Origin: Deltaproteobacteria bacterium
Lineage (GTDB): Bacteria; Desulfobacterota; Syntrophia; Syntrophales; UBA6807
Assembly: GCA_016935565.1 (NCBI GenBank)
Contig: JAFGQS010000144.1
Span: 10,966 to 74,965 of the forward strand
Direction of reading: 5' to 3'
DNA: 64,000 nt
A model generated the notes under the pieces. It was given only the letters and a program-made list of their open reading frames with translations. It searched no databases and had not been told where the DNA came from. Position 1 is the stretch's first letter. Every line of letters begins with the position of its first letter. A program made the position numbers and the translations under genes. Of the stretch, positions 1-17,006 are shown in pieces.

Positions 1-2
1 GC

Positions 3-662
3 ATGACGGCGGAGCAGCGGCTGCTGCCCATTTCGACATTCAAGCCTGAGCTGGGCTCGTTCAATGCCGGGTCGGTGAATTTTGCCCTGTTCCACGCCCT
101 CGAGCGGTACAAGGAGTTCAAATTTGAATGGGAGGCGCAGTACCTGGGCTTCACGGAGGATTTTATTTTTCCGAACACCTTTAAGACGATGAAGCAGTTT
201 TCGCGGATTTTCGGTGAGAACGATACGAAGCCGGAGTTTGAGGTGTACGATTCGGGAATGATCAACAACGTGGCATTTTTGATCAGCCGGGGCTACGTGA
301 AGACGCCGGTGTATATTCAGTTTGTCATGGGAGTCCTGGGGGGTATTACCCCGAGTTCGAAGAATCTGTTGAACCTGGTTGAATATGCGAAGGAATTGAT
401 TGGTGATTTTGAGTTTTCCGTGTGTGTTGCCGGCCGTGATCAATTTGCCATGTGCACGCAGGCGTTGCTTCTGGGAGGCAATGTTCGTGTGGGCCTGGAG
501 GACAATCTCTATGTGGAGAAGGGGGTCATGGCAAAGAGCAACGCGGAGCAGGTGGCGAAGATCATCCGGATTGCCCGGGAGCTGGGCGTCGAGCCTGCAA
601 CACCTGACGAGGCACGGCAGATCCTCGGTCTGAAGGGGCTGGATAAAGTGAATTTCTCATGA
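3..662 (+). CDS. Beta-keto acid cleavage enzyme (BKACE / 3-keto-5-aminohexanoate cleavage family), 5'-truncated by the window edge
   Basis: PELGSFNAGSVN, KPEFEVYD, GGNVRVGLEDNLY, SNAEQV and PATPDEARQILGL are BKACE motifs; the N-terminal HxH region lies outside the window. Confidence 0.9.
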   Translation: MTAEQRLLPISTFKPELGSFNAGSVNFALFHALERYKEFKFEWEAQYLGFTEDFIFPNTFKTMKQFSRIFGENDTKPEFEVYDSGMINNVAFLISRGYVKTPVYIQFVMGVLGGITPSSKNLLNLVEYAKELIGDFEFSVCVAGRDQFAMCTQALLLGGNVRVGLEDNLYVEKGVMAKSNAEQVAKIIRIARELGVEPATPDEARQILGLKGLDKVNFS

Positions 663-701
663 GATTTTTACAACGGGAATGAATGACAAAAGGAGGAAAT
701 A

Positions 702-1862
702 ATGGATTTCACCCTGAGTGATCAACACAGGATGTTACAGGACAGTGTTCGGAGATTTGCCGAAAAAGAAATCTGGCCGATTGCCGAAGAGATCGATGAA
801 AAAGATGAGTGGCCCGAGGGAATGTGGCAAAAACTGGGTGAACTGGGCGTTATGGGGATTACTGCTGATGTTGAGTATGGCGGCGCAGGGGCGGACCTGT
901 TGTCCGCCATCCTCGTTCTTCAGGAGTTGTCAAAGGCGAGTCCGTCCGTTGCCCTTTCCTGGGGTGCCCATGCGAATCTCTGTGTCAACAATTTGAACCG
1001 TAACGCAAATACGACACAGAAGGAGACGTATCTTCCCCCGCTGTGCTTGGGTGAACACATCGGAGCTCTGGGACTGACAGAGCCCGATGCGGGGTCAGAT
1101 GCCGTCAATATCCAGACTGTGGCGGTAAGGGATGGAGATCGTTATATTGTCAATGGGACGAAGATGTTTATAACGAACGGTTCGGTGGCGAACACTATTG
1201 TGCTCTATACAAAGACGGACAAAGAAAAAAAGGCCCGTGGTATTACGGCTTTCATCCTGGATACGGCATTCCCGGGATTTTCAGTTTCGAAAAAGTTAAA
1301 AAAGTATGGCCACAGAGGCTCTCCGACGGCTGAACTGATTCTTGAAGACTGTGTCATTCCTGCGGAGAATGTACTCGGAGAAGAAAATAAGGGAATCGAC
1401 GTGTTAATGTCGGGGTTAGACGTCGAACGTGCCTTTTATGCCGGTGAATCTCTCGGAATTGCAGAAGCCTGCCTCGCATTGTCTCTGAAGTACGCCCGTG
1501 AGAGGGTTCAGTTTGGAAAACCGATTGGGTCATTTCAGTTGGTACAGGCAAAATTGGCCGATATGTACACACAGATCGAGGCGGGGAGAATGCTCTGTTA
1601 CCGGGCTGCAATCATGGCCGATGCCGCGGAAAGAGGCGGCAAGGGAGCAGAGATCCACAAACTTTCTTCGGCGTCGATACTCTACAATGGTGAAATGGCC
1701 GTGAGGGTTGCCGATCAGGCGGTCCAGATCCATGGAGGGTACGGATACATGCTCGAATATCCGGTTCAGCGGTTTTTACGGGATGCCAAATTAATAGAGA
1801 TTGGTGCAGGAACATCGGAAATCAGGCGTCTGATTATAGCGAGGGAATTAATGGGAGCATAG
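702..1862 (+). CDS. Acyl-CoA dehydrogenase, isovaleryl-CoA dehydrogenase-like
   Basis: GALGLTEPDAGSD, NGTKMFITNG, ERVQFGKPIG, QIHGGYGY, RDAKLIEIGAGTSEIRR; LSWGAHANLCVNNL and MSGLDVER resemble the IVD subgroup; RBS aggagg. Confidence 0.9.
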   Translation: MDFTLSDQHRMLQDSVRRFAEKEIWPIAEEIDEKDEWPEGMWQKLGELGVMGITADVEYGGAGADLLSAILVLQELSKASPSVALSWGAHANLCVNNLNRNANTTQKETYLPPLCLGEHIGALGLTEPDAGSDAVNIQTVAVRDGDRYIVNGTKMFITNGSVANTIVLYTKTDKEKKARGITAFILDTAFPGFSVSKKLKKYGHRGSPTAELILEDCVIPAENVLGEENKGIDVLMSGLDVERAFYAGESLGIAEACLALSLKYARERVQFGKPIGSFQLVQAKLADMYTQIEAGRMLCYRAAIMADAAERGGKGAEIHKLSSASILYNGEMAVRVADQAVQIHGGYGYMLEYPVQRFLRDAKLIEIGAGTSEIRRLIIARELMGA

Positions 1863-1931
1863 TATCCCCCCCCATGCACGATGCAAGGCAGCAAATCAAT
1901 ATGGTGAGGCGAATGAAAAAGGAGTGATGCA

Positions 1932-2402
1932 ATGGGGAAAGATTACGAATATCTCGATGACTATACGGTCGGTGAAAAAATGCTGTCACCTGCACGGACA
2001 ATTACCGAGGCGGACATCGTCAATTTTGCGGGATTCACCGGAGATTGGCATCCCCTTCATACCGATGTGGTCTACGCGTCCACGACACCCTTTAAAGAGA
2101 GGATTACCCATGGAATGATCACCCTGAATATCGGTATGGCGCTGCCATTTCGTTTGGGACCCTATTCCAGTTACCTGCCGAAGTCCTTTATCGCCTTCTA
2201 CGGAATGGACAAGGTTCGTTTTATCGCGCCGACCAGGATCGGAGACACCATACATTGTGAAGTTGAAGTCGTTGAAATTAAGGATAAAAATAAGAAAAGA
2301 GGTGTGCTGACAACACGGCAATCTGTCAAAAACCAGAATGGGGAACTACTGGTTACATATATTATCAGGGTGTTATGCGGGAAAAGACCCGAGTCTTTAT
2401 AA
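1932..2402 (+). CDS. MaoC-family (R)-specific enoyl-CoA hydratase (hot-dog fold)
   Basis: RTITEADIVNFAGFTGDWHPLHTD hydratase motif (D-x4-H); RITHGMIT; VRFIAPTRIGDTI. Confidence 0.88.
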   Translation: MGKDYEYLDDYTVGEKMLSPARTITEADIVNFAGFTGDWHPLHTDVVYASTTPFKERITHGMITLNIGMALPFRLGPYSSYLPKSFIAFYGMDKVRFIAPTRIGDTIHCEVEVVEIKDKNKKRGVLTTRQSVKNQNGELLVTYIIRVLCGKRPESL

Positions 2403-2595
2403 CTGAAAAAGAGGTCATAATAACCATTATAACGTAAAAAATGAAAATGGAGATTCTGCTGTGAAAGAACTAAAAATTGAAGAGATTGTCATGAAGGCGA
2501 GAATGGGAAACAAACGTGTGGTAAAACGGTATGAGCAAATATCCTTGTTAGACATTCAGGAAGATGGATAACGAGTACTATAAGGAGGTGTCTGT

Positions 2596-3732
2596 ATGCG
2601 AAGGGTAGCCATAGCTTCGATGGCACAAAGTTCCGGGGGTGAGTCGAGAGACAGCTTGATGGATTTCACATTCCGTGTGGCGAAGGAAGCTCTCGACAAG
2701 GCCGGGATGACAAGAGACGAAGTCGGCTGTATTATGATTGGTTCCTCTGACATTTTTCATAGCGGCTTGTCGTGTTCCAATTCGTTTGATTGGGACGGTA
2801 CCGGGGCCTTTTTGAAGGAGGGTTCACGGGCGGAAGAATCGATTTTCGCTTTTATTTACGCCTGTATGCGTATCATGTCAGGTCAGTTCGACACGGTGTT
2901 AGTGACATCACTGGTCAAGGGGTCGGAGAATCCGGACAACGATGCGTGCACCAGCTTCTTCGCCGATCCCTTTTATCTGCGTCCCGTAGGCATGAATGAA
3001 ACCACGGCGGCGGCCATGCAGATGAGAGAGTATATGTGGCGTTATAGCATTACGGAGGAGCAATGTGCCAAGGTGGTGGAGAAAAATCTCGGTAATGCCC
3101 TCTACAATCCGTATGCCCACATCAAGAAGAAGGTGACCATTGACGACGTTCTCAGTTCACCGACCATCAGTGATCCCTTGAAGGTCCTGGAATGTGCCCC
3201 GAAATCCGATGGTGTCGTGTCCGTGCTTCTGGCATCGGAGGAGAAAGTGGGTGAGCTGACGAACCGGCCGGTCTGGTTAAAAGGGTATGGATGTTCCATT
3301 GATCATTTTTATCCCGGGGACAGAGACTTGCTGGACGGTGAGTTAAAAACAGCGGCAGCGGCGGCGTACAAGATGGCCGGCATCACTGACCCGAAAAAAG
3401 AAATCGATGTTGCGGAAATCTGCGAGCCCTATGCATTTCAGGAGCTTCTCTGGTGTGAACAGTTGGGTTTGTGCGGTGAAGGTGAAGGGGGCACGCTCAT
3501 CGACAGCGGCGTGACCCGAATGAACGGAACCCTGCCGGTCAATCCATCTGGTGGTGTCCTGGCCATGAATCCCTATGTCTCGAGAGGTCTGTACCGCATT
3601 GTTGAGGCAGCCCTGCAGATTCGCGGGAGAGCAGGAGAGCACCAAGTAGATAAAGACGTCAAAACGGCGTTGGCACATGGGACCCAGGGATTTGCCGGGC
3701 AATGTCATTCGGTCGTTATTTTAGAAGGTTAG
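2596..3732 (+). CDS. Thiolase-fold protein, SCP2-thiolase/Ltp4-like, without the canonical catalytic Cys and His
   Basis: ECAPKSDGVV, DVAEICEPYAFQEL, VNPSGGVLAMNP, ALAHG; no ACASG/GHP thiolase catalytic motifs. Confidence 0.8.
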   Translation: MRRVAIASMAQSSGGESRDSLMDFTFRVAKEALDKAGMTRDEVGCIMIGSSDIFHSGLSCSNSFDWDGTGAFLKEGSRAEESIFAFIYACMRIMSGQFDTVLVTSLVKGSENPDNDACTSFFADPFYLRPVGMNETTAAAMQMREYMWRYSITEEQCAKVVEKNLGNALYNPYAHIKKKVTIDDVLSSPTISDPLKVLECAPKSDGVVSVLLASEEKVGELTNRPVWLKGYGCSIDHFYPGDRDLLDGELKTAAAAAYKMAGITDPKKEIDVAEICEPYAFQELLWCEQLGLCGEGEGGTLIDSGVTRMNGTLPVNPSGGVLAMNPYVSRGLYRIVEAALQIRGRAGEHQVDKDVKTALAHGTQGFAGQCHSVVILEG

Positions 3733-3744
3733 GAGGGAGTGACG

Positions 3745-4911
3745 ATGGGTAAACCAGTAGCGATAATAGGAACGGGACAGACGAACCATGGGAGAAGACG
3801 GGACGTCAGTTATCCGGAGCTTGTGAGAGAGGCTGTGGTGGCAGCATTTGAAGATGCGGGAATTACGCCTCAGGATATCGATGGTGTTGTGTCGGGGACC
3901 ATGCCGTCAATGATGGAAGGAATATCGTTGACCCATTTTTATTTTGCCGATGCCCTGTGTCAGGTGGGAAAACCGATACTGAAGGTGGAAACCTGCGGAA
4001 GTACCGGGCAGTCGTTGGGTCACTGCGGCTACTATTGGGTTGCCTCGGGGATGGGCGATATCGTGCTCGTTGTGGGCCATGAAAAGATGCACGAAGGAGA
4101 CAGCCAGGCGACGATGACCACCGTCTTTGATCCTTTCTTCCAGCAGACGTTTGCTGCCGGAGCTCCGGGAATCTTCACGATGCAGTGCATGGAGTGGATG
4201 TACCGGTTTAATATTGATGAACAGAAAGCCCGGGAAGCTGCGGCGCTGGTGTCGGTGAGCAATCACGACAATGCCTTCGATAATCCTTACGCTCATATTA
4301 AGATACGGGTGACGGTCGATGACGTCAAGAGTGCAAAGGTTATCACCTACCCCGTTCGCCTTCTGGATGTATGTCCGAACTCAGATGGAGCCTGTGCCGT
4401 GATTTTCGCCTCCGAGGAGAAGGCGAAGAAAATATGTAAGAAACCGGCCTGGATTAAGGGTATGGGGTTCCGCGGAGAAGAGTTTTTCTTCGGTGAAAGT
4501 GACAAGTCGGTTTGGCCGAGTGCAACGGAAGCGGCGAAAGAAGCGTACAATATGGCCGGCATTCGGGATCCTTTGAAGGAACTGGATGTCGCGGAGGTAT
4601 ACAATCCGTTTACGTATCAGGAAATGATTTTTTATGAGTGTTTCGGATTCTGTCCTCGGGGAGAGGGTCCCGACTATGTGTTGAAAGGCACGTTCAAGAA
4701 GGGGGGCAAGCTTCCCTGTGATCCCTCGGGCGGTACCTTGTGTACCAATCCTATCGGTGCGACGGGTCTCATACGGTTAGCTGAATCTGTGCTCCAAGTG
4801 ACGGGCAAAGCAGGTGATCGCCAGGTTGAGGGTGCAAAGCTTGCCCTGTCCCACGCAATGGGGGGAACCGATCAGTTTAATGGTATTACTATTGTATCGT
4901 CTGAGCTGTAA
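3745..4911 (+). CDS. Thiolase-fold protein, Ltp3-like putative retro-aldolase
   Basis: KVETCGSTG, CPNSDGACA, AEVYNPFTYQE, PSGGTLCTNPIGATG, ALSHAMGG; the ORF track starts at GTG 3739, but ATG 3745 fits RBS aggagg better. Confidence 0.8.
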   Translation: MGKPVAIIGTGQTNHGRRRDVSYPELVREAVVAAFEDAGITPQDIDGVVSGTMPSMMEGISLTHFYFADALCQVGKPILKVETCGSTGQSLGHCGYYWVASGMGDIVLVVGHEKMHEGDSQATMTTVFDPFFQQTFAAGAPGIFTMQCMEWMYRFNIDEQKAREAAALVSVSNHDNAFDNPYAHIKIRVTVDDVKSAKVITYPVRLLDVCPNSDGACAVIFASEEKAKKICKKPAWIKGMGFRGEEFFFGESDKSVWPSATEAAKEAYNMAGIRDPLKELDVAEVYNPFTYQEMIFYECFGFCPRGEGPDYVLKGTFKKGGKLPCDPSGGTLCTNPIGATGLIRLAESVLQVTGKAGDRQVEGAKLALSHAMGGTDQFNGITIVSSEL

Positions 4912-4956
4912 GAATGCCGTGACATAAAGCGATTGTACACGAAGGAGGATTGAATA

Positions 4957-5424
4957 ATGGCGAAAGAAGAACCGAGAGAATTCAAGGCTGAAGTGGTCGT
5001 TCCCTATGAGTTGGCGGTTGGCCGCACGTGGACCACGTTCTACGATACCTTGAAGGAGGAAAAGATACTGGGAACAAAATGCAGGAAGTGCGGAAGGGTT
5101 TTTGTTCCCCCGAGGACATTCTGCCCGCGGTGTTTTGAAGAAATGGATGAATGGGTTGAGGTTGCGCAGGAAGGTGTTGTCGAGACCTGGGCCCTGATCA
5201 ACATGCCGTTTTACGGGCAGCAACTCGAGATTCCTTTTGTATCGGCACAGATTCGTCTGGACGGCAGTGACACGGGATTCACTCACCGCATCGGGGGATT
5301 TGATCTTAAAGATTTTGAGACGGTACGGACGAGAGTAAAACTGGGCAGTCGCGTAAGGACCGTGTGGAGTAAGGAGAAGAAGGGGGGAATCCTTGATATT
5401 GACTACTTTGAGCCCGTGAAATGA
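4957..5424 (+). CDS. DUF35-family Zn-ribbon/OB-fold protein (acyl-CoA-binding partner of thiolase-fold enzymes)
   Basis: GTKCRKC...PPRTFCPRC Zn ribbon, then OB fold (GVVETW, IRLDG, GSRVRTVW). Confidence 0.88.
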   Translation: MAKEEPREFKAEVVVPYELAVGRTWTTFYDTLKEEKILGTKCRKCGRVFVPPRTFCPRCFEEMDEWVEVAQEGVVETWALINMPFYGQQLEIPFVSAQIRLDGSDTGFTHRIGGFDLKDFETVRTRVKLGSRVRTVWSKEKKGGILDIDYFEPVK

Positions 5425-5465
5425 TTTGTCGAGCGATGCGATTACGGATAAGGGAGGACGATGAT

Positions 5466-5930
5466 ATGTCGAAAGAGTATCGAACCATACGGAACGACGT
5501 TTCGTTACCATATAGATGGTCGTTGGGCCCGGTATGGACCCGATTTTTTGATGGATTAAAGGATGAAAAGATTTACGGCACGAAATGTACGCAGTGCTGC
5601 AAGGTCCTAGCTCCGGCAAGGCCATTTTGCCCCGGCTGCTTCGGGGCGATGACAGAGTGGATTGAGGTTGGCCAGGAAGGAACGGTGACGTCATGGACGC
5701 TCGTGAAAAACAGATATTACGGACAGATTAAGGAGCCGCCGTATATCATGGCGTTGATCCTGCTCGACGGGACCGATTGCGGTTTCAGCCACTTTATCGG
5801 TGGGATCGAGATGACTGATGTCGAAGAGGTCAAAAAGAAGGTAGCTGTCGGCACACGGGTAAGGGCAAAATGGAGTCAGGACAAAAACGCCACTATTTAT
5901 GATATTGCCTATTTTGAACCTGTCGGTTAA
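5466..5930 (+). CDS. Second DUF35-family Zn-ribbon/OB-fold protein
   Basis: GTKCTQC...RPFCPGC, GTVTSWT, ILLDG; paralogous to 4957..5424; ATG 5466 downstream of ggagg preferred over ORF start 5421. Confidence 0.88.
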   Translation: MSKEYRTIRNDVSLPYRWSLGPVWTRFFDGLKDEKIYGTKCTQCCKVLAPARPFCPGCFGAMTEWIEVGQEGTVTSWTLVKNRYYGQIKEPPYIMALILLDGTDCGFSHFIGGIEMTDVEEVKKKVAVGTRVRAKWSQDKNATIYDIAYFEPVG

Positions 5931-6401
5931 AGTGTGTCAAGTCGGATAGTGCCGATATCCCCGTCATGCGGGAATGTTGGCACCGTCTCATACGTGACAA
6001 TCGTATGTCGTATCTGTCAGTCGGCAATGTATGTCACTTTTCGAAACGAAGACATGATCTTGTATGGAGTTCATAGATGAGAATGGTAGACCTGAGAGTA
6101 ATCGAAAAAAGTTTGAACCGCGGATTCTCTATGGCCTCCCTTTTTCTGTCCCTTAAATGCAGGCAAAGACGTGAGAATGACGACTCGTGGGTTGGTGCTG
6201 TTTCAAGGGACTTTAAAACGTCAAAGAGGGAGCTGGCTCATTGATTAACATTGTCAGCTATTATTGAGTTTTTACTTTTTCACGTCCGACGTTTTCGAGA
6301 GCTTACGTTGTTGAAGCATGATTATTCCTTTGCGTGTATCAGCCTGATAGTAACCGCATATACTGCTGTAAGCACAATCACATAAAACATGGGGTTAACA
6401 G

Positions 6402-6788
6402 ATGCAGATTGTGACCGCTGCCGTAATGGAAAAAGACGGGAAAATTTTGATAGCCCAGCGACGCAGAGGAGACCACCAGCAGTACAAATGGGAACTGCCT
6501 GGCGGCAAGCTGGAATCTCATGAAACTCCAGAAGAGTGTCTGCGAAGAGAACTTCGGGAAGAGTTCGGTATAGAGACTGAGATTGGAGAATTCTTAGGAT
6601 CAAGTGATTGTCACTACCGTCATACATCCATACGGCTGATGGCGTTCAGGGCATACCATATTTCGGGTGAATTGAACGTCCTGGATCATGAAACAATAAA
6701 ATGGGTAGTACCCTCGGAACTGGTCAATTTTGATTTCTCCGAACCGGACAAACCCATTATTCAACTGTTGACAGGAATAAAGAAGTAA
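6402..6788 (+). CDS. NUDIX hydrolase, MutT/NudG-like
   Basis: WELPGGKLESHETPEECLRRELREEFGI Nudix box. Confidence 0.88.
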   Translation: MQIVTAAVMEKDGKILIAQRRRGDHQQYKWELPGGKLESHETPEECLRRELREEFGIETEIGEFLGSSDCHYRHTSIRLMAFRAYHISGELNVLDHETIKWVVPSELVNFDFSEPDKPIIQLLTGIKK

Positions 6789-8720: not shown

Positions 8721-10367
8721 ATGGACACAACTACTCAAGATTATGCAAATCAAAATCGTATATTAACAGAGAAGCTATATGTGAAGAACAACTTATTGAA
8801 CCATGTTTATGAAATCAGCTCATTACTCACACAGTCTCCCGATCTCGATGAAGTTTTAAACAACATCGTTGATCGTGCCATGAATGGTCTCAATTTTGAC
8901 AGAGCCATTGTTATGCTTCTCGACAAGGATGAAACAAAACTGGAATGTAAGTGCATCAAAGGGTTTACACCACGCGGGGAAAAACGGGCATGGAATAAGC
9001 CCTTGTATCTTGACAGACATGATTGTTATGAAACAAAAGTCATCCAACGGGGTGAACCACTCTTTGTAGAGGATACGGAAAATGCATCTAACATGACAGA
9101 GATTGATACAATCATAAATAAATATCAGGAAAGAAAATCAGTTCTCCATGTTCCGCTTAAATTAAAAGGAAAAGTTATCGGCATAATAGGTGTTGATAGA
9201 TACCGAACACGAATGAAGATTACCAGGGATGACGTCGAATCGCTGGCCATATTTGCGAACCAGGCTGCGATCATTATCGAGAATGCAAGACTTTATAAAG
9301 CGGTGAATGATGAGAAACTTCTGTCAGAAAATATTATTAAATGTTCAGTCAATGGTGTGGTTGTCAGTGATCTTAAGGGACGTGTTTACCATCTCAATCC
9401 CAAGGCGGAAGAAATTTTAAAAATAAGTCAGGAAAAAGCAAAAGAAATACGAATAGACCGGTTGCTTCAACTTGAAGAGAAAGAAAGAATAAGAATATTC
9501 CATGAGTTGAAAAAAAAGAACAACATCAATCAGTTTGAAATTGATTATCATAGAAACGATGACAAGAAATTAATACTTGAATTGACTGCCTTTATCATTT
9601 TAGATGAAAATGAGGAGGTATTGGGTGCCGTAACATTAGTTAACGATTTAACTGAAAAAAAGAAGATAGATGATTATTTGTCACGGGCTGAGAAATTCGC
9701 AGCTCTGGGCCGGATAGTATCAGGAATAGCGCACGAGGTCAGAAATCCTCTTGCAAGTATTTATACAACCGTACAGAATCTTGAGAACGAATTGTCTGAA
9801 CATAATTTCGCCAGAGACGACCTTCAGAACATCATGCAGGAGATTGACAGAGTCGAGAAACTGATAAGACAGATCTTGAATCTGGCCAAGCCTCTTCCCC
9901 TTCAAATCGAAACTGTAGATATTAATGAATTACTTCTGACGACTATACCACTCATAGAAAAAGAGGCGAAAAAAAAGGGTATTACGCTAAAAACCACATT
10001 GAGTGGCGATATCGGACATACAGGGGCAGATCCCAACAGATTGCGGCAGGTAATCTTAAACTTACTTATCAATGCGATTGAATCGATCAACAGGAGGGGG
10101 GAAATCACAGTCAGCACAGAGAGGGTCGTGGAAGCGGACGGTCAAAAAAAGTGGATGCTCATGAAATTTAAGGATAATGGTATCGGTATTTCCCCGGACA
10201 TCATTGATAAAATTTTTGATCCTTTCTTTACCACAAAAAATGTGGGTACCGGTCTGGGATTAGCGGTGTCACACAAGATTATACAGGATCATAACGGAAT
10301 GATTGAGGTGGAAAGTCATAAAAATAACGGGACCATCTTCAGCATCAAACTTCCGATTTTTGCTTAG
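8721..10367 (+). CDS. Cytoplasmic sensor histidine kinase (GAF-PAS-HisKA-HATPase)
   Basis: GAF (HVPLKLKGKVIGIIGVD, FANQAAIIIENARLY), PAS (NPKAEEIL), H-box IAHEVRNPL, N-box NLLINA, DNGIG, DPFFTTK, GTGLGL; no TM segments seen. Confidence 0.92.
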   Translation: MDTTTQDYANQNRILTEKLYVKNNLLNHVYEISSLLTQSPDLDEVLNNIVDRAMNGLNFDRAIVMLLDKDETKLECKCIKGFTPRGEKRAWNKPLYLDRHDCYETKVIQRGEPLFVEDTENASNMTEIDTIINKYQERKSVLHVPLKLKGKVIGIIGVDRYRTRMKITRDDVESLAIFANQAAIIIENARLYKAVNDEKLLSENIIKCSVNGVVVSDLKGRVYHLNPKAEEILKISQEKAKEIRIDRLLQLEEKERIRIFHELKKKNNINQFEIDYHRNDDKKLILELTAFIILDENEEVLGAVTLVNDLTEKKKIDDYLSRAEKFAALGRIVSGIAHEVRNPLASIYTTVQNLENELSEHNFARDDLQNIMQEIDRVEKLIRQILNLAKPLPLQIETVDINELLLTTIPLIEKEAKKKGITLKTTLSGDIGHTGADPNRLRQVILNLLINAIESINRRGEITVSTERVVEADGQKKWMLMKFKDNGIGISPDIIDKIFDPFFTTKNVGTGLGLAVSHKIIQDHNGMIEVESHKNNGTIFSIKLPIFA

Positions 10368-10481
10368 GTTTTCCCTAAGAGGAACAGAATTTGCTGTACC
10401 ACTATGCATACATGGTAATTTCTCGAAGGAAATACAGGTAACAACACCCTCTGTATTGTTACTTATAGTAGGATATTAATT

Positions 10482-11831
10482 ATGAAACCGACAATCTTAA
10501 TCGTGGATGATGAAAAATTACTCCTGAGCTCTCTTGAGAGAGCATTATCCGGAAACGAGTACCATGCACTAACGGCAAAAAATGGCAAAGGTGCCCTGGC
10601 TTTCTTTGAAAAGAACAACCCCGATTTAGTTTTGCTCGACGTAAAATTGCCGGATATCGATGGAATGCAACTTCTGAGGAAAATCAGAGAGATAGATCTG
10701 CACTGTCCGGTTATTATGATGACTGCATATAGCGGGATCAGGGGGGCTGTTGAAGCGATAAAGCTTGGCGCCTATGACTACATTGCAAAACCTTTTGATA
10801 TCGAAGAGTTGAAATTTGCTATTGCACGATGTCTGGAATCTCAAAGGGCTATGGTCGAAGTGAATGAAATCAAGTCTAAGAAAAAGGAACGGTATAGTTT
10901 TGAAAAGATTCTAACCCGGAATTCCGATATGAAAGAAATCATCAGATTAGCGAAACGTATAGCAGTAAACGATAAATCGACGGTACTAATCTCGGGAGAA
11001 AGTGGTACCGGTAAAGAACTTTTTGCCAATGCCATTCATTATAATGGGCCGCGTTTAAATGACCCCTTCATCACGGTCAATTGTGCGGCATTATCGGAAG
11101 GAGTCCTCGAGAGCGAACTCTTTGGTCATGAAAAAGGGGCTTTTACCGGTGCGATTAAACAAAAGAAGGGATTCTTCGAACTTGCCGATAAGGGAACGCT
11201 CTTCCTTGATGAGATCGGAGAAATCAGTCACAAAACCCAAGTGAGGTTGTTAAGATTTCTCGAAGAGAGAAATTTTCAGAGAGTGGGCGGTACTGAAGAT
11301 ATTGACGTTGATGTAAGAATTATCACCGCTACCAATAAAGATTTATTGGAAGAAGTATCTAAGGGGAATTTCAGGGAGGATTTATATTATCGACTTAATG
11401 TGATTTCCATTCATCTACCCCCGTTGTGTGAAAGAAAAGATGACATACCTCTGTTGGTTGAACGATTGATTGCAAATTACAGAATAACATTAAACAAAAC
11501 CGCACGGAGGTGTGATGATGAAGCCTTACGGATTTTACTGGATTACGATTGGCCCGGCAATATAAGAGAATTGAGAAACATCATTGAAAGAACAGTTTTA
11601 CTGAGCGATGATGAAATAATTACCCCGTCTGACTTGCCATTGGAGATTGTCAACAATCACGGGAGACCAGAGACGGCAAATATACACAACCTTGATCCCA
11701 TGTCACTGGATACGTTGATTAAACTTTACGTAGAGAACATACTATCCCGAAGTAAGAATAATAAATCAAAGGCGGCAAGCATATTAGGCATTACCAGACA
11801 GCGATTACGAAGAATTCTCCGATCACAATAG
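10482..11831 (+). CDS. Sigma54-dependent response regulator (NtrC/AtoC family)
   Basis: REC (VDDE, LLDVKLP, KPF), Walker A GESGTGKE, GAFTGA loop, LFLDEI, WPGNIREL, C-terminal HTH. Confidence 0.95.
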   Translation: MKPTILIVDDEKLLLSSLERALSGNEYHALTAKNGKGALAFFEKNNPDLVLLDVKLPDIDGMQLLRKIREIDLHCPVIMMTAYSGIRGAVEAIKLGAYDYIAKPFDIEELKFAIARCLESQRAMVEVNEIKSKKKERYSFEKILTRNSDMKEIIRLAKRIAVNDKSTVLISGESGTGKELFANAIHYNGPRLNDPFITVNCAALSEGVLESELFGHEKGAFTGAIKQKKGFFELADKGTLFLDEIGEISHKTQVRLLRFLEERNFQRVGGTEDIDVDVRIITATNKDLLEEVSKGNFREDLYYRLNVISIHLPPLCERKDDIPLLVERLIANYRITLNKTARRCDDEALRILLDYDWPGNIRELRNIIERTVLLSDDEIITPSDLPLEIVNNHGRPETANIHNLDPMSLDTLIKLYVENILSRSKNNKSKAASILGITRQRLRRILRSQ

Positions 11832-11971: not shown

Positions 11972-12243
11972 GTTAAACGAGCAGGAACCCTACCCTACAA
12001 GCTTTTACAGCACTCATTCGTCAAAATAATTCTGCATATATCAATCACAGTGAAAAAATATCTATTTCCCGGGAATTGTCAGTAATGGGTATTGACCATA
12101 ACTTTCTGTGTTGAAATTGTAATTAATACTGTAGGCTATAAAACGAAAAATCTTACATGAGATACTGATCGTTTAATTACGTATACTTTTTATATGTATC
12201 AAGCCTATGGTCACGCTGCAACCAACGTTTTAATTCATAAAAA

Positions 12244-12259
12244 CGGCATATAATTTGCG
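12244..12259 (+). promoter_or_regulatory. Sigma54 (-24/-12) promoter
   Basis: CGGCATATAATTTGCG: GG 12245-6, 10 nt, GC 12257-8; lies downstream of a sigma54 activator gene and upstream of the maoC operon. Confidence 0.7.
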
Positions 12260-12275
12260 TACTCAGATTGCGAGA

Positions 12276-12392
12276 AATGCAGAACGGATAGTTAAGATGG
12301 GATCCAGTATCAACGAACGGAGTATTGATCCGGCAACCCCGGATGAGACGAGGGTAACCCTTGGTTTGAAGGAACCGGGTTAGGTGAATTAT
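12276..12392 (+). pseudogene. Remnant of the 3' end of a BKACE gene
   Basis: Translates NAERIVKMGSSINERSIDPATPDETRVTLGLKEPG*VNY, gap-free colinear with NAEQVAKIIRIARELGVEPATPDEARQILGLKGLDKVNF of 3..662; in-frame TAG at 12381. Confidence 0.85.
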
Positions 12393-12440
12393 TACCTGAG
12401 CCCGTATAATGAGAGTCGCTATGAACTTAGAGGGGAAAAG

Positions 12441-12628
12441 ATGGACGTTAGCCCAAGAGCGAGCCAATTGAGGGCTCGGGTTTGACCGAGCCCAATGTAG
12501 AATCGGATGGCATCAGTATCCAGACTGTTGCAATGAGGCAAAAGGAGTATTATGCCGTTGACGGGACCAAAAGCTACATTACGAATGGCTCGGCAACCAA
12601 TATGATTGTCCTCAACGCAAAAGCATAA
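12441..12628 (+). pseudogene. Remnant of an acyl-CoA dehydrogenase gene
   Basis: RBS-like agagggg then ATG GAC at 12441; from 12467 in another frame IEGSGLTEPNVESDGISIQTVAMRQKEYYAVDGTKSYITNGSATNMIVLNAKA*, matching [52 protein letters not shown] of 702..1862. Confidence 0.85.
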
Positions 12629-12649
12629 AAAATTAAGGAGGAAGAGAGA

Positions 12650-13114
12650 ATGGGAAAAGATTACGAATATCTCGAAGATTATACCGTCGGTGAAAGATTC
12701 ATATCTCCGGCAAGAACCATTACCGAGACCGACGTAATAAATTTTGCCGGTATTACCGGTGACTGGCATCCATTGCATGTGGATGTGGAATATGCCGCAA
12801 AGACACCCTTCAAAGGAAGAATCACCCACGGGATGCTAACATTAAGTGTCGGCCTGTCCCTACCTTTTCTGCTGGGACCCTATTCGAGTTATCTTCCCAA
12901 GTCGTTTATTGCTTTTTACGGTATGGACGAGGTTCGTTTTACGGGGCCGAACAGGATTGGTGATACGATTCACACTGAGGTTGAGGTCCTTGAAATAACT
13001 GACAAAGGTAAAAACAGGGGAATACTTACAATTCAAAACGTTGTTAAAAATCAGCAGGGAGAGCAGATCCTGTCCTTTGTTATGAAATTGTTCTGTGGAA
13101 AGAGACAGGAATAA
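12650..13114 (+). CDS. MaoC-family hydratase, close paralogue of 1932..2402
   Basis: MGKDYEYLEDYTVGE..GDWHPLH..LGPYSSYLPKSFIAFYGMD nearly identical to the first copy. Confidence 0.9.
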   Translation: MGKDYEYLEDYTVGERFISPARTITETDVINFAGITGDWHPLHVDVEYAAKTPFKGRITHGMLTLSVGLSLPFLLGPYSSYLPKSFIAFYGMDEVRFTGPNRIGDTIHTEVEVLEITDKGKNRGILTIQNVVKNQQGEQILSFVMKLFCGKRQE

Positions 13115-13189
13115 CAGCTGAATCAAATTGATTATTCGTTATGTTTTTAAGTATAAGAATTTAAATTACTTTTTAAAAAAGGAGGTATC

Positions 13190-14848
13190 ATGATGTCCGG
13201 AGGATCTGGAAAGAAGGAATCACGGCAACAGAAACGAGAAAGACAATATAAGGAAAACCGGGAACACTGGCTTGCCGAGGAAGAAAAAACATACGCATTG
13301 TGGGAGAAAGCTTACAATCCCGGTGGACAGGCCCAGATCGATCGCCTTGCAAAACAGGGGAAAAAACCGGTACGTCAGCTTATCAAACAGCTCATCGATC
13401 AGGATACCACGTTTTACGAGCTGAGCAGAGGTGCCGGGTTTGGCATGAATTATGATGTTGTCGATGAACCGACAGAAGATGTCCCCAGTGCAGGGTTGGC
13501 CACAGGCATCGGCAAGGTTCATGGCAACTGGGTGATGGTGATCGCCAATGACAGCCGGGTGAAGGCGGGGGCATACTACCCGATTAATTGCAAAAAACAC
13601 CTTCGTGCCCAGGAGATTGCCGATCAATGCGGGATTCCCTGTGTTTATATCGCCGATTCGGCCGGTGGTTTTCTGCCGATGCAGGACAGGATTTTTCCCG
13701 GAAGGAATCAATTCGGCCATTTTTTCTATAACATGTGCAGGATGTCCGCCAAAGGGCTCAAACAGTATACTCTCAGCACCGGGGGTAATACCGCCGGTGG
13801 CGCCTATATTGTCTATCTTGCCTGTGAGTCTATCATGATCGACAAGATGTCGTATTCATTTCTGGCAGGACCACCCATGGTGAAATCGGCTATCGGTGAG
13901 GTGGTCGATATGGAGACCCTGGGAGGCGCCCGAGTTCATACGGGTATATCCGGCGGGGCAGATCATTTTGTCACATCACAGGATGAAGGTATAGAAAAAT
14001 TGAGAGAGCTGTTATCTCATGATCCGAAACAGAAGCTGTATATCGAACGGCGTGAGATCAAGGAGCCCAGAGTCTCTGATGCACGTCTCTATGAGGTCTT
14101 GCCGAAGGATACATACAGAGGGGTAAACGTTCGGGAGGTCATCAACTGTATCGCCGACGATAGCTACTTCAGCGAATACAAGCGTAATTACAACCCCGGC
14201 CGGGGTGACAACATTGTGTGTGGTAAGATGTTTCTCCGGGGGATTCCCGTGGGAGTCGTGGCAGCTAATAACAACGGTGTCATCTATATTGACGCTGCGA
14301 GGAAGGCAATCGAATGGGTCATCAGATGCTGCACCGAAAAAATTCCGATTCTCTATATACAGAATTCTCCGGGATATATGGTCGGCACGCAGGAAGAATA
14401 CGGCGGTATTGGCAAGTATGGCTCCGGCATGGTGAGAGTCGCCGCATGCGCTGACGTACCCAAGATCCAATGGGTAATCGGTCCTGACCATGGTGCTGCA
14501 AATTTCGGAATGTGTGGACGGACCTTTGATCCGAATTTTATCTTCTCGACCATGCGCGCCAGGACAACCGTGTTGTCGGGACAGACGGCGGGGAATATCT
14601 TGACCACACTGGCACGGATAAACGCAAAGAAACGAGGAGAAGAAATGGATGAAGAGGAAATCGAGGCGTATAAACAAAAAATGATCGATAAGTATGAAGT
14701 GGAAGGACACCCGTTCTATATGGAAGCCCGGCTGTATCAGGATGGTACGCTTCCTTTGAAGGAGACACGTGATTACCTGTCGACGGCTTTCGAGGTTACA
14801 CTTTTAAAGCCCATTCCGGAATCACACTTTGGAAATTTCAAATTCTAG
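13190..14848 (+). CDS. Acyl-CoA carboxylase carboxyltransferase subunit (3-methylcrotonyl-CoA carboxylase beta-like)
   Basis: ANDSRVKAGAY, KKHLRAQEIA, DSAGGFLP, TAGGAY, FLAGPPMVKSAIGE, LGGARVH..ISGGADH, PGYMVG, GAANFGMCGR. Confidence 0.88.
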   Translation: MMSGGSGKKESRQQKRERQYKENREHWLAEEEKTYALWEKAYNPGGQAQIDRLAKQGKKPVRQLIKQLIDQDTTFYELSRGAGFGMNYDVVDEPTEDVPSAGLATGIGKVHGNWVMVIANDSRVKAGAYYPINCKKHLRAQEIADQCGIPCVYIADSAGGFLPMQDRIFPGRNQFGHFFYNMCRMSAKGLKQYTLSTGGNTAGGAYIVYLACESIMIDKMSYSFLAGPPMVKSAIGEVVDMETLGGARVHTGISGGADHFVTSQDEGIEKLRELLSHDPKQKLYIERREIKEPRVSDARLYEVLPKDTYRGVNVREVINCIADDSYFSEYKRNYNPGRGDNIVCGKMFLRGIPVGVVAANNNGVIYIDAARKAIEWVIRCCTEKIPILYIQNSPGYMVGTQEEYGGIGKYGSGMVRVAACADVPKIQWVIGPDHGAANFGMCGRTFDPNFIFSTMRARTTVLSGQTAGNILTTLARINAKKRGEEMDEEEIEAYKQKMIDKYEVEGHPFYMEARLYQDGTLPLKETRDYLSTAFEVTLLKPIPESHFGNFKF

Positions 14849-14941
14849 TATCGTGATTGATCTGATGAAAAGAGCACCGGAACTGAAGTGACGAAATTAA
14901 ACCGAGCGACTATGAACTATATGTAAGAAGGAGAAATTACG

Positions 14942-15739
14942 ATGTCGGCTGTAGTACTGCAGGAAAAAACAGAAGAGGGAATATTGATTCTTACGTTAAA
15001 TCGACCGGAAGCAATGAACTGTATGAACTTCGATATGATTGAAACGTTGGGGACGGTCATTAAGGAATCGAATTTTGATATGAGCATTCGTGTTATCATA
15101 ATAACTGGTGCCAATCCGCCGGAGGGCAAGAAGGCATCTTTTTCGGCAGGAGCCGACCTGGCCGAGCGGAGAAAACTCTCCGATGATCAGGTACGACGTT
15201 TTATCACAACGGTTCGCGGAACCATGATTGCCGTGGAAAACGCACGGGTTCCGGTTATTGCTGCCATTAACGGGTATGCTTTTGGAGGGGGAACGGAACT
15301 GGCCATGGCCTGCGATCTCAGGATTGCATCCTCAAATGTCTTGATGGGTCTCACCGAAACCAGTCTGGGGATTATTCCGGGTGGTGGCGGTACGCAGCGG
15401 TTGCCCCGTATTGTTGGTGTAGCGAAGGCAAAAGAATTGATATACACGGCCCGGCGATTTGGTGCCCGGACGGCCCTGGAAATCGGTCTGGTAAGTCGAG
15501 TGGTGGATCCGGCACAACTTATGGATGCAGCCATGGAACTGGCGGGAGAGATCGCAAAGAACGGACCTATCGGTGTTCAGCAGGCCAAATTTGCCATTAA
15601 TTATGGGTCTGAGAGCAGTCTCGGTGTTGCTCTCCCCCTCGAATCGAAGGCCTATGAAATTACCATTCCGACTGAAGACCGCCTGGAAGCGCTGTCAGCA
15701 TTCGCAGAAAAGCGAAAACCGTTATTCAAGGGTACGTGA
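14942..15739 (+). CDS. Crotonase-family enoyl-CoA hydratase (methylglutaconyl-CoA hydratase-like)
   Basis: LNRPEAMN, FSAGADL, PVIAAINGYAFGGGTELAMACDLR, GLTETSLGIIPGGGGTQRLPR. Confidence 0.9.
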   Translation: MSAVVLQEKTEEGILILTLNRPEAMNCMNFDMIETLGTVIKESNFDMSIRVIIITGANPPEGKKASFSAGADLAERRKLSDDQVRRFITTVRGTMIAVENARVPVIAAINGYAFGGGTELAMACDLRIASSNVLMGLTETSLGIIPGGGGTQRLPRIVGVAKAKELIYTARRFGARTALEIGLVSRVVDPAQLMDAAMELAGEIAKNGPIGVQQAKFAINYGSESSLGVALPLESKAYEITIPTEDRLEALSAFAEKRKPLFKGT

Positions 15740-15802
15740 TAAAACCGTATGTGTCGTATGAGTTGAAATACCTGAGAGGAAAAAAATAAGAAGGAGTGAT
15801 GT

Positions 15803-16954
15803 ATGGGCGATAAATATCAATTAAGTTTTCCGAAGAAAGTACGATTAGCTGACATATCGATTCGGGAGGGTCTGCAACACGAAGAACATTTCATACCGAC
15901 CGATGCGAAAGTTTACTATGTCGAGGAATCCATATTAGCGGGTTTTAAAAGATTGGAGATTACCAATCTGGGAAATCCGGCGTTTATGCCCCAGTTCAGG
16001 GATGCCGAAGAACTCCTCACTCGTATCCGTAACAGCAGGCGTCTTTCCCGGGCGGGAATAAACTTCGATGACATTGAAATTACTGCTGTGGCCATACGAG
16101 AGAGTGGCGTTGACAGAGCAGTCGCAGGTCGAAAGGAAGGATGGGGACCGGATCGTATCGGCATGATGGTATCCACTGATGAGGAACACCATTTTGCCAA
16201 TTCCGGGACTACCCTGCCTGAATATTGGGAAGAAGCGAAGCGCTGTATCGATAAATGTCATGATGTGAACATCAAAGTTTTCGGGACGGTGAGCACCATC
16301 TGGGGAAGCCCTATCTCGGGACCGACGAAATTCGAAGACGCCCTTGAATTTACACAACGATGGCTTGCCATTGGTGCGGATGATATCGAACATGCCGACC
16401 ATGATGGCTCTGCCCCACCTGATCAAGTCTATCGGTATTTTTCTATGATTCTCGACGAACTTCCCAATACGGATCTCCATGTGGCGCATTTTCATGTTAC
16501 GAGAGGATGGGGACCGGCAAATGTCCTGGCGGCGCTCCACGCTGGAGTCGATATTCATGAAGGAGTGCTCGGCGGCATCGGGGGTCAACCAACGAACTTC
16601 ATCGACCGGATTCCTGTTAGAGGAACAGGAGAATATTATTACCAGGACCCCAATATTGTAGGGCTTGGGAGTCTCGAAGACATGCTGGTAATGATGGATG
16701 AAATGGGTATTGAGACGGGTATCGATGTCGACAGGGTGCTCCGCTTGGGAAGAATGTGGGAGAAAACGATCGGGCGCCGCCTTAGATCCGAGTCGATCCT
16801 TAACGGTAGGATACCAAAAAAACCCAGGGAAGATTTTAAGCGGAAGGGACTGGCGGAAAGGAAGGCGAAACGGGGCGAAGAGTCCGGACAGCGATATCCA
16901 GCAGACTGGCCGGAAAACGTAGAACTTCCCTACAAAATTACCGGTGTAAAATAG
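15803..16954 (+). CDS. HMG-CoA lyase-like DRE-TIM metallolyase (atypical)
   Basis: DISIREGLQHE, AHFHVTRG (HxH), GGIGGQP, EDMLVMMDEMGIETGID. Confidence 0.8.
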   Translation: MGDKYQLSFPKKVRLADISIREGLQHEEHFIPTDAKVYYVEESILAGFKRLEITNLGNPAFMPQFRDAEELLTRIRNSRRLSRAGINFDDIEITAVAIRESGVDRAVAGRKEGWGPDRIGMMVSTDEEHHFANSGTTLPEYWEEAKRCIDKCHDVNIKVFGTVSTIWGSPISGPTKFEDALEFTQRWLAIGADDIEHADHDGSAPPDQVYRYFSMILDELPNTDLHVAHFHVTRGWGPANVLAALHAGVDIHEGVLGGIGGQPTNFIDRIPVRGTGEYYYQDPNIVGLGSLEDMLVMMDEMGIETGIDVDRVLRLGRMWEKTIGRRLRSESILNGRIPKKPREDFKRKGLAERKAKRGEESGQRYPADWPENVELPYKITGVK

Positions 16955-16961
16955 TACATCA

Positions 16962-17006
16962 GGGCAACACCACTGCGGAGGCTCACGCGCCGATGTGGTG
17001 TTGCCC
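16962..17006. repeat. 12-bp inverted repeat hairpin at the end of operon B
   Basis: gggcaacaccac ... gtggtgttgccc with a 21-nt loop; no U-tract. Confidence 0.6.

Follow-up and report, generated by a model that had tools for sequence, protein, structure and literature searches.

A conserved two-paralogue thiolase-fold/DUF35 module linked to an isovaleryl-CoA dehydrogenase-type enzyme in Syntrophales and other uncultured anaerobes, a candidate cysteine-independent C–C lyase

Introduction

Can two thiolase-like proteins that lack the catalytic residues of thiolases still make or break a carbon–carbon bond? The question is raised by an operon in a 64,000-nucleotide stretch of the genome of a Deltaproteobacteria bacterium of the Syntrophales (assembly GCA_016935565.1, contig JAFGQS010000144.1), referred to here as the window. 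Six open reading frames (ORFs) at 702–5930, all on the plus strand, encode an acyl-CoA dehydrogenase (ACAD), a MaoC-type hydratase, two thiolase-fold paralogues that are named ThlA and ThlB here, and two DUF35 proteins, DUF35a and DUF35b (Table 1). Pfam supports every family, at the coordinates given by an earlier interpretation made from the DNA letters (the sequence-only reading). Window coordinates map to G000:C139:10966-74965, G000 being the window's own genome, which is 99.15% complete; residues are numbered from the listed ORF starts.

To our knowledge, the DUF35-dependent, Cys-less thiolase-fold lyases characterised so far all serve the aerobic breakdown of steroid and bile-acid side chains. 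The interpretation favoured here, and held tentatively, is that ThlA, ThlB, DUF35a and DUF35b may form a heteromeric, cysteine-independent C–C lyase that acts after an isovaleryl-CoA dehydrogenase (IVD)-type ACAD and the MaoC hydratase, as an arm of a larger regulon.

Results

Active-site substitutions in ThlA and ThlB

ThlB contains the motifs ETCGSTG, TNPIGATG, and AEVYNPF. When ThlB is aligned by HMMER to BbsB (7pxp) and to the Pyrococcus thiolase (7yvy), without gaps in either case, the column of the canonical nucleophile Cys is occupied by Gly87, and the Cys of ETCGSTG (Cys86) lies one residue earlier; a MAFFT alignment of 137 rows gives the same register, with the canonical x-A-C opposite T-C-G of ThlB. 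The HDCF motif of the SCP2-thiolase 6hsj aligns residue by residue with YNPF of ThlB (Tyr288-Asn-Pro-Phe), and the His of its GHP motif stands opposite Asn337 in the TNP of ThlB. In ThlA the nucleophile column lacks a Cys, holding Ala when aligned to 7yvy by HMMER and a gap when aligned by MAFFT; the protein reads AMNPYVSRG (MNPY) at the GHP site and xEPY (CEPY) at the HDCF site, and has no Tyr at the first position of the latter motif. The nucleophile Cys, the HDCF motif, and the GHP His of canonical thiolases of the SCP2/archaeal type are thus missing from both proteins and, judged by these residues, neither can be a canonical thiolase. This agrees with the sequence-only reading, which had found no canonical catalytic set in either protein; the motifs it quoted are present, and the substitutions are invariant among ThlB homologues. 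Cys86, Gly87, Tyr288, and Asn337 are conserved in 121 of 121 sequences (the window ThlB and its 120 best homologues) and YNPF in 119 of the same set; 89 of the 390 ThlB residues are invariant.

According to a 2025 JBC paper on Sal, SCP2 thiolases carry HDCF, catalysis by Ltp2 depends on Tyr294 of YDHF and on Tyr344, that by Sal on Tyr302 and Cys304 of YDCY with a Gly at the nucleophile position, and the Tyr at the first motif position is the catalytic base of the solved aldolases (PMC12329534). With YNPF in place of HDCF, Tyr288 of ThlB occupies the site of the catalytic Tyr of the thiolase-fold aldolases Ltp2, Sal, and SLP. ThlB shares this Tyr with all three and the Gly with Sal; it has the second catalytic residue of neither Ltp2 nor Sal.

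A conserved dehydrogenase–hydratase–ThlAB–DUF35 gene set

A synteny survey, as the sequence-only reading had suggested, was run on 75 related loci from genome_contigs. Most belong to Syntrophales or 'delta proteobacterium' bins; others come from Dehalococcoidia, Desulfomonilaceae, a Sulfobacillus bin, and Ca. Methanolliviera. Neighbours were counted at the 67 loci with a ThlB of at least 60% identity; many loci end at contig edges, so that the counts are lower bounds. ThlA adjoins ThlB in 61 of the 67 and DUF35 in 62 (one gene in 38, two in 23). A MaoC gene is a neighbour in 36, an ACAD of at least 60% identity in 33, a CoA-transferase of the acetyl-CoA hydrolase/transferase family in 33, and a beta-keto acid cleavage enzyme (BKACE) of at least 60% identity in 22. 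ACAD-MaoC-ThlA-ThlB-DUF35 is a conserved gene set, and within it ThlA, ThlB, and DUF35 form a closely knit and uncharacterised unit, all occurrences of which are in metagenome-assembled genomes (MAGs). The gene order in Dehalococcoidia, ThlA-DUF35a-ThlB-DUF35b, suggests one DUF35 protein for each thiolase-fold subunit.

Of the neighbouring genes, the ACAD is linked most closely to ThlAB. In a phyletic comparison of 41 relatives, ACAD orthologues (E at most 1e-120) occurred in 12 of the 16 ThlB-positive and in none of the 25 ThlB-negative genomes, a count of the sort that kinship inflates; for BKACE orthologues (at least 62% identity) the numbers were 10 of 16 and 4 of 25. The co-occurrence of ACAD and ThlAB supports the order dehydrogenase, hydratase, lyase. 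The five best PDB matches of the ACAD are all IVDs, at 418–385 bits (4o5m, 418; 4kto, 407; 1ivh, 388), the best butyryl-type enzyme scoring 334 bits. Its GLDVER and EIGAGTSEIRR stretches align with the matching stretches of 4o5m; we take GLDxER, with the catalytic Glu on helix G, and the Gly/Ala in place of the C-terminal Glu of MCAD-type enzymes to be IVD-defining. By these sequence marks the ACAD is IVD-type, as had been read earlier. The MaoC protein carries GDWHPLH in its translation, presumably the Asp/His hydratase motif. No 3-hydroxyacyl-CoA dehydrogenase is present among the ORFs of the operon.

ThlB is 65–88% identical across phyla. Its orthologues in a Ca. Methanolliviera archaeal MAG (L086), seven Dehalococcoidia loci (L078-L084), and the Sulfobacillus bin (L101) are 65–70% identical, which suggests that the ThlA-ThlB-DUF35 unit has moved between phyla, unless the bins are in error. 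This degree of conservation, together with the 89 invariant residues, argues for catalysis and bears on the proposal that ThlAB has another chemistry or none: it might decarboxylate a carboxylated acyl-CoA, act as an isomerase, or serve solely as a scaffold. The Cys-less thiolase fold of TbSLP does decarboxylate malonyl-type thioesters, at a very low kcat (PMC12329534), and the module co-occurs with carboxyltransferases (see below). Since the association with ACAD and MaoC is more in keeping with a lyase, we regard such other roles as quite improbable.

Paralogous copies of the gene set were also observed. A cluster in the window's own genome (G000:C10:4582-12216, L022) contains an ACAD (68%), MaoC, ThlA (66%), ThlB (72–73%), one DUF35, a CoA-transferase, a second IVD-type ACAD, and a divergent regulator of ∼1100 amino acids (aa) with a sigma-54-activator-like part. 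Another lies in a one-contig MAG (G015:C1, ∼2150000-2170000; L019/L085). On one side it is flanked by a divergent set made up of an Oxidored_FMN/Pyr_redox_2 enzyme, BKACE, an HpaB-family gene, and another ACAD; on the other, a canonical thiolase gene is accompanied by those of a ligase and a 3-hydroxyacyl-CoA dehydrogenase. Two overlapping frames (3566-4399, 4281-5051) make up the HpaB-family gene, possibly through a frameshift or an assembly error. The third ThlB copy of the same MAG (G015:C1:301790-302959, L102; 76–84% identical) is in three pieces with one TAA inside the match and has the look of a pseudogene or a sequencing error.

Carboxylation genes beside the module

A second operon (12650–16954) lies 6.7 kb downstream of the ThlAB operon, behind a sensor kinase and its regulator (8721–11831). 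It encodes a MaoC paralogue (MaoC2), a carboxyltransferase (CT) like the beta subunit of 3-methylcrotonyl-CoA carboxylase (MCC), a crotonase-type enoyl-CoA hydratase (ECH), and a protein resembling the lyase (HMGL) of 3-hydroxy-3-methylglutaryl-CoA (HMG-CoA). MCC beta subunits are the best PDB relatives of the CT (3u9r, 406 bits; human MCCB, 402 bits), the geranyl-CoA carboxylase beta subunit scoring 268 bits; the HMGL-like protein reaches 143 bits on the NCBIfam HMG-CoA lyase model PRK05692, against a cut-off of 246. In one relative (G012), orthologues of BKACE (78%), the IVD-type ACAD (75%), MCC-beta (76%), the crotonase (78%), and the HMGL-like protein (85%) are contiguous on one strand (L119, G012:C12, 4863-10909), and MaoC-ThlA-ThlB-DUF35 is located on a separate contig (L029). 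Orthologues of the kinase and sigma-54 regulator (60–67%) stand directly upstream of the ACAD-MaoC-ThlAB-DUF35 operon at four loci (L037, L051, L059, and L096), in three of which BKACE is the first gene; at L051, MaoC2 follows the ThlAB operon. The ThlAB module appears to share regulators with carboxylation genes. MCC-beta orthologues occur in 15 of the 16 ThlB-positive and 10 of the 25 other relatives, and MaoC-CT pairs are found in relatives without a ThlB orthologue as well (L120, L121, L124).

The shared neighbours and the co-occurrence indicate that the ThlAB module co-exists with carboxylation genes and does not replace them. The dehydrogenase–hydratase–aldolase scheme first proposed for the locus keeps its triad and the aldolase-like Tyr288; its claim to be an ATP- and carboxylation-independent way past a beta-branch is not supported, given the MCC-type genes in the window, their contiguity in G012, and their retention in ThlB-positive relatives. 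Further CT-ECH-HMGL-like sets were noted elsewhere: a paralogous one on C60, and its counterpart in G015 (L123), which adds a canonical HMGL and glutaconate-CoA-transferase-like genes, the latter named by eye.

The biotin carboxylase domains PF02785 and PF00289 have no match in G000, each having been sought across the genome, and they have matches in 13 of 14 control genomes. G000 contains six carboxyltransferase matches, one OAD_beta Na+-decarboxylase beta subunit adjoining a small biotin carrier (C166:32707-34154), and a canonical HMGL of 305 aa adjoining a second biotin carrier (C169:12059-13332). With the biotin carboxylase domains absent from G000, the parts present do not suffice for a classical ATP-dependent MCC holoenzyme; the MCC-beta-like CT may carboxylate or decarboxylate.

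Taken with the IVD-type ACAD and the conserved ACAD-MaoC-ThlAB triad, the lack of PF02785 and PF00289 fits a self-sufficient route that would convert isovaleryl-CoA through 3-methylcrotonyl-CoA and 3-hydroxyisovaleryl-CoA to acetone and acetyl-CoA, replacing the MCC/HMG-CoA lyase route without carboxylation. Such a route is unlikely, in view of the MaoC paralogue, MCC-beta-like CT, crotonase, and HMGL-like gene 6.7 kb downstream, the contiguous BKACE-ACAD-CT-ECH-HMGL-like genes of G012, and the MCC-beta gene kept in nearly all ThlB-positive relatives. It also gives BKACE no role, and a literature search found no link of 3-hydroxyisovaleryl-CoA or hydroxy-3-methylbutyryl-CoA with acetone. By stoichiometric reasoning, its sole acetyl-CoA would be spent on activating the next isovalerate, so that acetone is left and no net ATP is gained from isovalerate; the acetone route alone is therefore an unlikely growth pathway.

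The same genes could be read in the condensing direction: a ketone (acetone) or an aldehyde would be joined to acetyl-CoA, dehydration by MaoC would give 3-methylcrotonyl-CoA, and the MCC-beta/ECH/HMGL-like arm would yield acetoacetate and acetyl-CoA, an ATP-sparing ketone assimilation. MaoC2-CT-ECH-HMGL-like indeed reads as four consecutive steps from 3-hydroxyisovaleryl-CoA, MaoC-CT pairs are conserved, and G000 combines a Na+-decarboxylase beta subunit and its adjoining biotin carrier with a second carrier elsewhere and no biotin carboxylase domains. The aldol addition to a ketone is uphill, however, with 3-methylcrotonyl-CoA at about nanomolar concentration for millimolar acetone by our own estimate, and it leaves unneeded the ACAD, the very gene that is most tightly tied to ThlAB. 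Net condensation is considered very improbable.

A proposed lyase for tertiary 3-hydroxyacyl-CoAs

In the favoured interpretation, the ACAD would make a beta-methyl-branched enoyl-CoA of the 3-methylcrotonyl-CoA type, and MaoC would hydrate it to a tertiary 3-hydroxyacyl-CoA, which cannot be oxidised. ThlB, presumed to be the catalytic subunit, would then cleave this product in a retro-aldol reaction that releases acetyl-CoA together with a carbonyl compound; Tyr288 would take part, as would one of the conserved Cys residues 86 and 335. On this view the module would be one arm of a branched-chain regulon of the leucine/isovalerate type, not a stand-alone bypass, and this regulon would include a CoA ligase or CoA-transferase, BKACE, the MCC-beta-like CT, the crotonase, and the HMG-CoA-lyase-like protein. 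We infer complex formation, reaction, substrate, and direction from the genes, families, substitutions, synteny, and co-occurrence described above.

Two types of substrate are proposed. 3-Hydroxyisovaleryl-CoA would give acetone and acetyl-CoA, which explains why ACAD, MaoC, and ThlAB usually occur together without a CT. A 3-hydroxy-3-alkylglutaryl-CoA of the HMG-CoA type would give acetyl-CoA and a free beta-keto acid, which BKACE would convert with acetyl-CoA to an acyl-CoA and acetoacetate; this option explains BKACE and the MaoC-CT pairing. The recurrent linkage of BKACE mildly favours the beta-keto-acid option over the acetone option. HMG-CoA as the sole substrate of ThlAB was given a low rank, since one and the same step would then have two hydratase/lyase pairs in the window, and a third lyase, the canonical HMGL, is encoded on C169.

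Relatedness of ThlA and ThlB and the case for a thiolase

Several observations weigh against the lyase interpretation, the kinship of ThlB among them. Among solved proteins its best scores are with the thiolase-like protein ST0096 (4yzo, 159 bits), the Pyrococcus thiolase (7yvy, 152), BbsB (7pxp, 149), the SCP2-thiolase 6hsj (143), and the Methanothermococcus thiolase (6esq, 131), ahead of Ltp2 (6ok1, 91) and Sal (9myr, 84). A Foldseek search with the ThlB model gave the same order, with TM scores of up to 0.91 in the closest group and Ltp2 and Sal at ranks 22 and 44. On these PDB pairwise scores and Foldseek ranks, ThlB is nearer in sequence and fold to true or archaeal DUF35-linked thiolases than to Ltp2 or Sal, and 'Ltp2-type', as the module had at first been called, does not hold as a clade label. 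Of the second catalytic residues of the aldolases, Cys304 of Sal corresponds to Pro290 and Tyr344 of Ltp2 to Asn337, the equivalence of the Asn337 column with Tyr344/Gln352 being taken from a 50-residue spacing only. In the AlphaFold2 model of ThlB (predicted local distance difference test, 92.3), the helix after the strand begins at Cys86, so that Cys86 may reach the active site as a nucleophile. ThlA is conserved as strongly as ThlB and could have a catalytic role of its own, which the proposed mechanism ignores. With regard to the substrate, the pocket stretch of the ACAD, aligned to IVD, has no new basic residue that would hint at a dicarboxylic substrate, a weak piece of evidence, and isovaleryl-CoA as substrate leaves BKACE without a role. 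With regard to the regulon, neither an MCC-beta-like CT nor an HMGL-like gene lies within 10 kb of ThlB at any of the 67 loci, so the adjacency seen in the window is not conserved. Finally, all 75 related loci come from MAGs, the source names are generic, and the clade is biochemically uncharacterised.

Some of these points would suit a thiolase or acyltransferase re-invented around Cys86, in the manner of BbsB and PhlC, acting on a 3-oxoacyl-CoA or another acyl donor, with the hydroxyacyl-CoA dehydrogenase encoded elsewhere. Cys86 is invariant, and in the model it opens the helix that follows the strand. The solved proteins nearest to ThlB are true thiolases or, in one case, thiolase-like, and within a few kb downstream of paralogous clusters in relatives there are genes for a 3-hydroxyacyl-CoA dehydrogenase (Hbd) and a canonical thiolase. 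Yet Cys86 is off the nucleophile column by one in every alignment, the wider Tyr-Asn clade (see below) has Gly-Gly and no Cys at the Cys86-Gly87 columns, neither histidine is present, nor is the acid/base Cys of HDCF, no 3-hydroxyacyl-CoA dehydrogenase is encoded in the operon, and a 3-hydroxyacyl-CoA with a beta-methyl branch cannot yield a 3-oxo compound by oxidation. A Cys86-dependent thiolase is thus thought improbable, and a lyase with Tyr288 at its centre is preferred.

The best NCBIfam model for ThlA and for ThlB is PRK08313, at 388 bits against a cut-off of 514; the 'lipid-transfer protein' model PRK07937 is a lower match for ThlA (166 bits, cut-off 419). We take PRK08313 and PRK07937 to be models that cover Ltp3 and Ltp4. 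In a set of 5.8 billion proteins the 120 best ThlB matches are 70–88% identical, and in a set clustered at 50% identity the next relatives fall to 58% and then to at most 45%; the ESM Atlas returned generic thiolase clusters only. A FastTree tree was built from 125 of 150 representatives (355–440 aa) and 12 window or orthologue rows. One branch with a Shimodaira–Hasegawa-like support of 100 sets 51 rows, of which 39 are Cys-His-His, apart from the other 86, and the latter contain a Cys-less Tyr-Asn group of 35 rows including ThlB and a group of 41 rows with a gap at the nucleophile including ThlA. This placement of ThlA-type and ThlB-type proteins in one clade apart from the Cys-His-His thiolases fits an old alpha/beta paralogue pair. 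Ten representatives of the Tyr-Asn clade bear generic names only ('thiolase family protein', 'acetyl-CoA C-acetyltransferase').

Layout of the locus

The operon begins upstream of the window, where a sigma-54 regulator, an acyl-CoA ligase, and the start of BKACE precede the ACAD, and the gene set is thus wider on both sides of the 702–5930 block than had been recognised, with BKACE and the ligase upstream and MaoC2-CT-ECH-HMGL-like downstream. That two DUF35 genes follow the thiolase-fold pair, as originally noted, is borne out by their Pfam domains (Table 1), and CxxC...CxxC can be read in both translations. ThlB is likely to start at the ATG at 3745, and the ATG at 5466 is the probable start of DUF35b, the orthologues of which have ∼154 aa. 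No terminator was found 3' of DUF35b within 5700–6500. A loose sigma-54 -24/-12 pattern has one match upstream of MaoC2 (∼12244) and none upstream of the ligase, and was given no weight. The G+C content is 0.48–0.51 in both operons (1–6000 and 12000–18000) and 0.38–0.46 between them and elsewhere in the window.

Table 1. Genes of the two operons and their surroundings (window coordinates unless a contig is given).
Feature	Position	Strand	Basis and remarks
Sigma-54 regulator	C139:6971-8530		Upstream of ligase; named by eye from translation, no family search
Acyl-CoA ligase	C139:8955-10547		Upstream of BKACE; named by eye from translation, no family search
BKACE, C-terminal 219 of 308 aa	3..662	+	Pfam BKACE, E 1.6e-63; gene start C139:10701, outside window
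ACAD, isovaleryl-CoA-dehydrogenase type	702..1862	+	Three Acyl-CoA_dh Pfam domains; best PDB relatives IVDs
MaoC-type (R)-specific enoyl-CoA hydratase	1932..2402	+	Pfam MaoC_dehydratas, E 1.8e-29; best PDB relative 1q6w, 112 bits
ThlA, thiolase-fold paralogue	2596..3732	+	Pfam Thiolase_C_1
ThlB, thiolase-fold paralogue, presumed catalytic subunit	3739..4911	+	Pfam Thiolase_C_1 + Thiolase_N
DUF35a, C4 zinc ribbon (C42, C45, C56, C59) + OB fold	4957..5424	+	Pfam zf-ChsH2 + OB_ChsH2_C
DUF35b, C4 zinc ribbon (C56, C59, C70, C73) + OB fold	5421..5930	+	Pfam zf-ChsH2 + OB_ChsH2_C
Sensor kinase	8721-10367	+	ORF listing
Sigma-54 response regulator	10482-11831	+	ORF listing
MaoC2, paralogue of MaoC (1932-2402)	12650..13114	+	70.8% identity over 154 aa
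MCC-beta-like carboxyltransferase (CT)	13190..14848	+	Pfam Carboxyl_trans; best PDB relatives MCC beta subunits
Crotonase-type enoyl-CoA hydratase (ECH), candidate methylglutaconyl-CoA hydratase	14942..15739	+	NCBIfam PRK07657, 316 bits
HMG-CoA-lyase-like DRE-TIM protein, 383 aa, divergent from canonical HMGL	15803..16954	+	Pfam HMGL-like, 70 bits

Full-length BKACE scores 407 bits on NF053538 (3,5-dioxohexanoate:acetyl-CoA transferase), under the cut-off of 430, and its best solved relative is the uncharacterised DUF849 protein 3lot. Among 12 BKACE relatives of at least 540 aa, five of ∼666 aa (P0319-P0323, 50–52% identical) are fused to NAD domains of the ApbA or 3-hydroxyacyl-CoA dehydrogenase type; such fusions would couple the formation of a beta-keto acid to its cleavage. 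No DUF35 Pfam domain occurs in any of the 12, neither of the two longer DUF35a relatives has a BKACE domain, and no fusion to DUF35 was found among the BKACE-like ORFs of the loci; since a DUF35-BKACE fusion would be expected to have ∼450 aa, outside the range of the search for longer BKACE relatives, this is weak evidence against such fusions. A literature search found no work linking BKACE with Syntrophus, and among the matches listed for DUF35, aldolase, and Syntrophales, DUF35 was unmentioned.

Discussion

Among the systems closest to ThlAB are the steroid side-chain hydratase-aldolases Ltp2-ChsH2(DUF35)/ChsH1 of actinobacteria and Sal-Shy(DUF35) of proteobacteria. ThlAB and both of these have a thiolase fold without the nucleophile Cys, a motif Tyr, and a DUF35 partner, putative in the case of ThlAB, and are preceded by an ACAD and a MaoC hydratase without a 3-hydroxyacyl-CoA dehydrogenase; the Gly at the nucleophile position is that of Sal. 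The differences are considerable. The aldolase is homodimeric in those systems, whereas the ThlAB operon encodes two paralogues; DUF35 is fused to MaoC there and encoded by two stand-alone genes here; and the ACAD there is of the steroid type, in contrast to the small IVD-type enzyme beside ThlAB. Two adjacent thiolase-like paralogues linked to branch removal are also a feature of Ltp3/Ltp4, for which an aldol-lyase function has reportedly been proposed; the hosts of ThlAB are, however, anaerobes, the context is one of short chains, and the NCBIfam scores remain below the family cut-offs. The archaeal DUF35-linked thiolases and BbsAB include the closest solved relatives (159–131 bits), and the enzyme is DUF35-dependent in 6esq and BbsAB. 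Except for ST0096, these relatives retain the Cys, the HD, and the GHP and catalyse thiolysis or a Claisen condensation, in contrast to ThlA and ThlB, which lack those residues. As judged from these comparisons, ThlAB/DUF35 is a distinct two-paralogue form with invariant residues of its own (Cys86-Gly87, Tyr288-Asn-Pro-Phe, and Asn337).

The window also contains an IVD-type ACAD, an MCC-beta-like CT, a crotonase, and an HMGL-like protein, recalling the Liu pathway of leucine and isovalerate (IVD, MCC, methylglutaconyl-CoA hydratase, and HMG-CoA lyase). It departs from that pathway in having no MCC alpha subunit or biotin carboxylase domain in G000 and a divergent lyase, and in the addition of MaoC, ThlAB/DUF35, and BKACE. 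Another parallel is found in methanogenic limonene degradation, where cleavage of 3-hydroxy-3-isopropenylglutaryl-CoA by the Lrc operon of a Syntrophobacteraceae member has been proposed from omics data (PMC12583861). The logic of an ACAD, hydration to a tertiary alcohol, and a C–C lyase in a related anaerobe is shared, and the proposed lyase differs in coming from the HMG-CoA synthase superfamily. The sequence-only reading had known of no description of such a route in this context; this holds for the ThlAB unit, which is uncharacterised, but not for the sequence of steps, already put forward with another enzyme family (PMC12583861). Through its BKACE the operon resembles the triacetate acetoacetate-lyase system of anaerobic phloroglucinol degradation (PMC10470551). 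It differs from that system in a score below the cut-off of the NCBIfam model, and the ORFs examined next to the operon included no recognisable gene for a phloroglucinol reductase or cyclohydrolase.

A bolder proposition, which we regard as doubtful, is that IVD-MaoC-ThlAB/DUF35 interconverts 3-methylcrotonyl-CoA (via 3-hydroxyisovaleryl-CoA) and acetone plus acetyl-CoA in an organism without an ATP-dependent biotin carboxylase. If this were true, the forward direction would remove a beta-methyl branch without ATP, and the backward direction would bring acetone into a pathway of the leucine type, with an MCC-beta that draws on a Na+-coupled biotin system; in both cases ketones would be connected with branched-chain acyl-CoA metabolism, at a saving of ATP, by a route not known before in energy-limited anaerobes.

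The lack of a biotin carboxylase domain beside several carboxyltransferases raises the question of how CoA esters of the 3-methylcrotonyl type become carboxylated or decarboxylated. The ThlAB form spans Syntrophales, Dehalococcoidia, an alkane-oxidising archaeon, and other uncultured anaerobes, and is tied to IVD-type ACAD, BKACE, and MCC-type genes. If it is a true lyase for tertiary 3-hydroxyacyl-CoAs, thousands of 'acetyl-CoA acetyltransferase' annotations would be corrected, and the module would show how syntrophic, energy-limited anaerobes pass the methyl branches of leucine-derived acids, iso-fatty acids, or terpenoid fragments.

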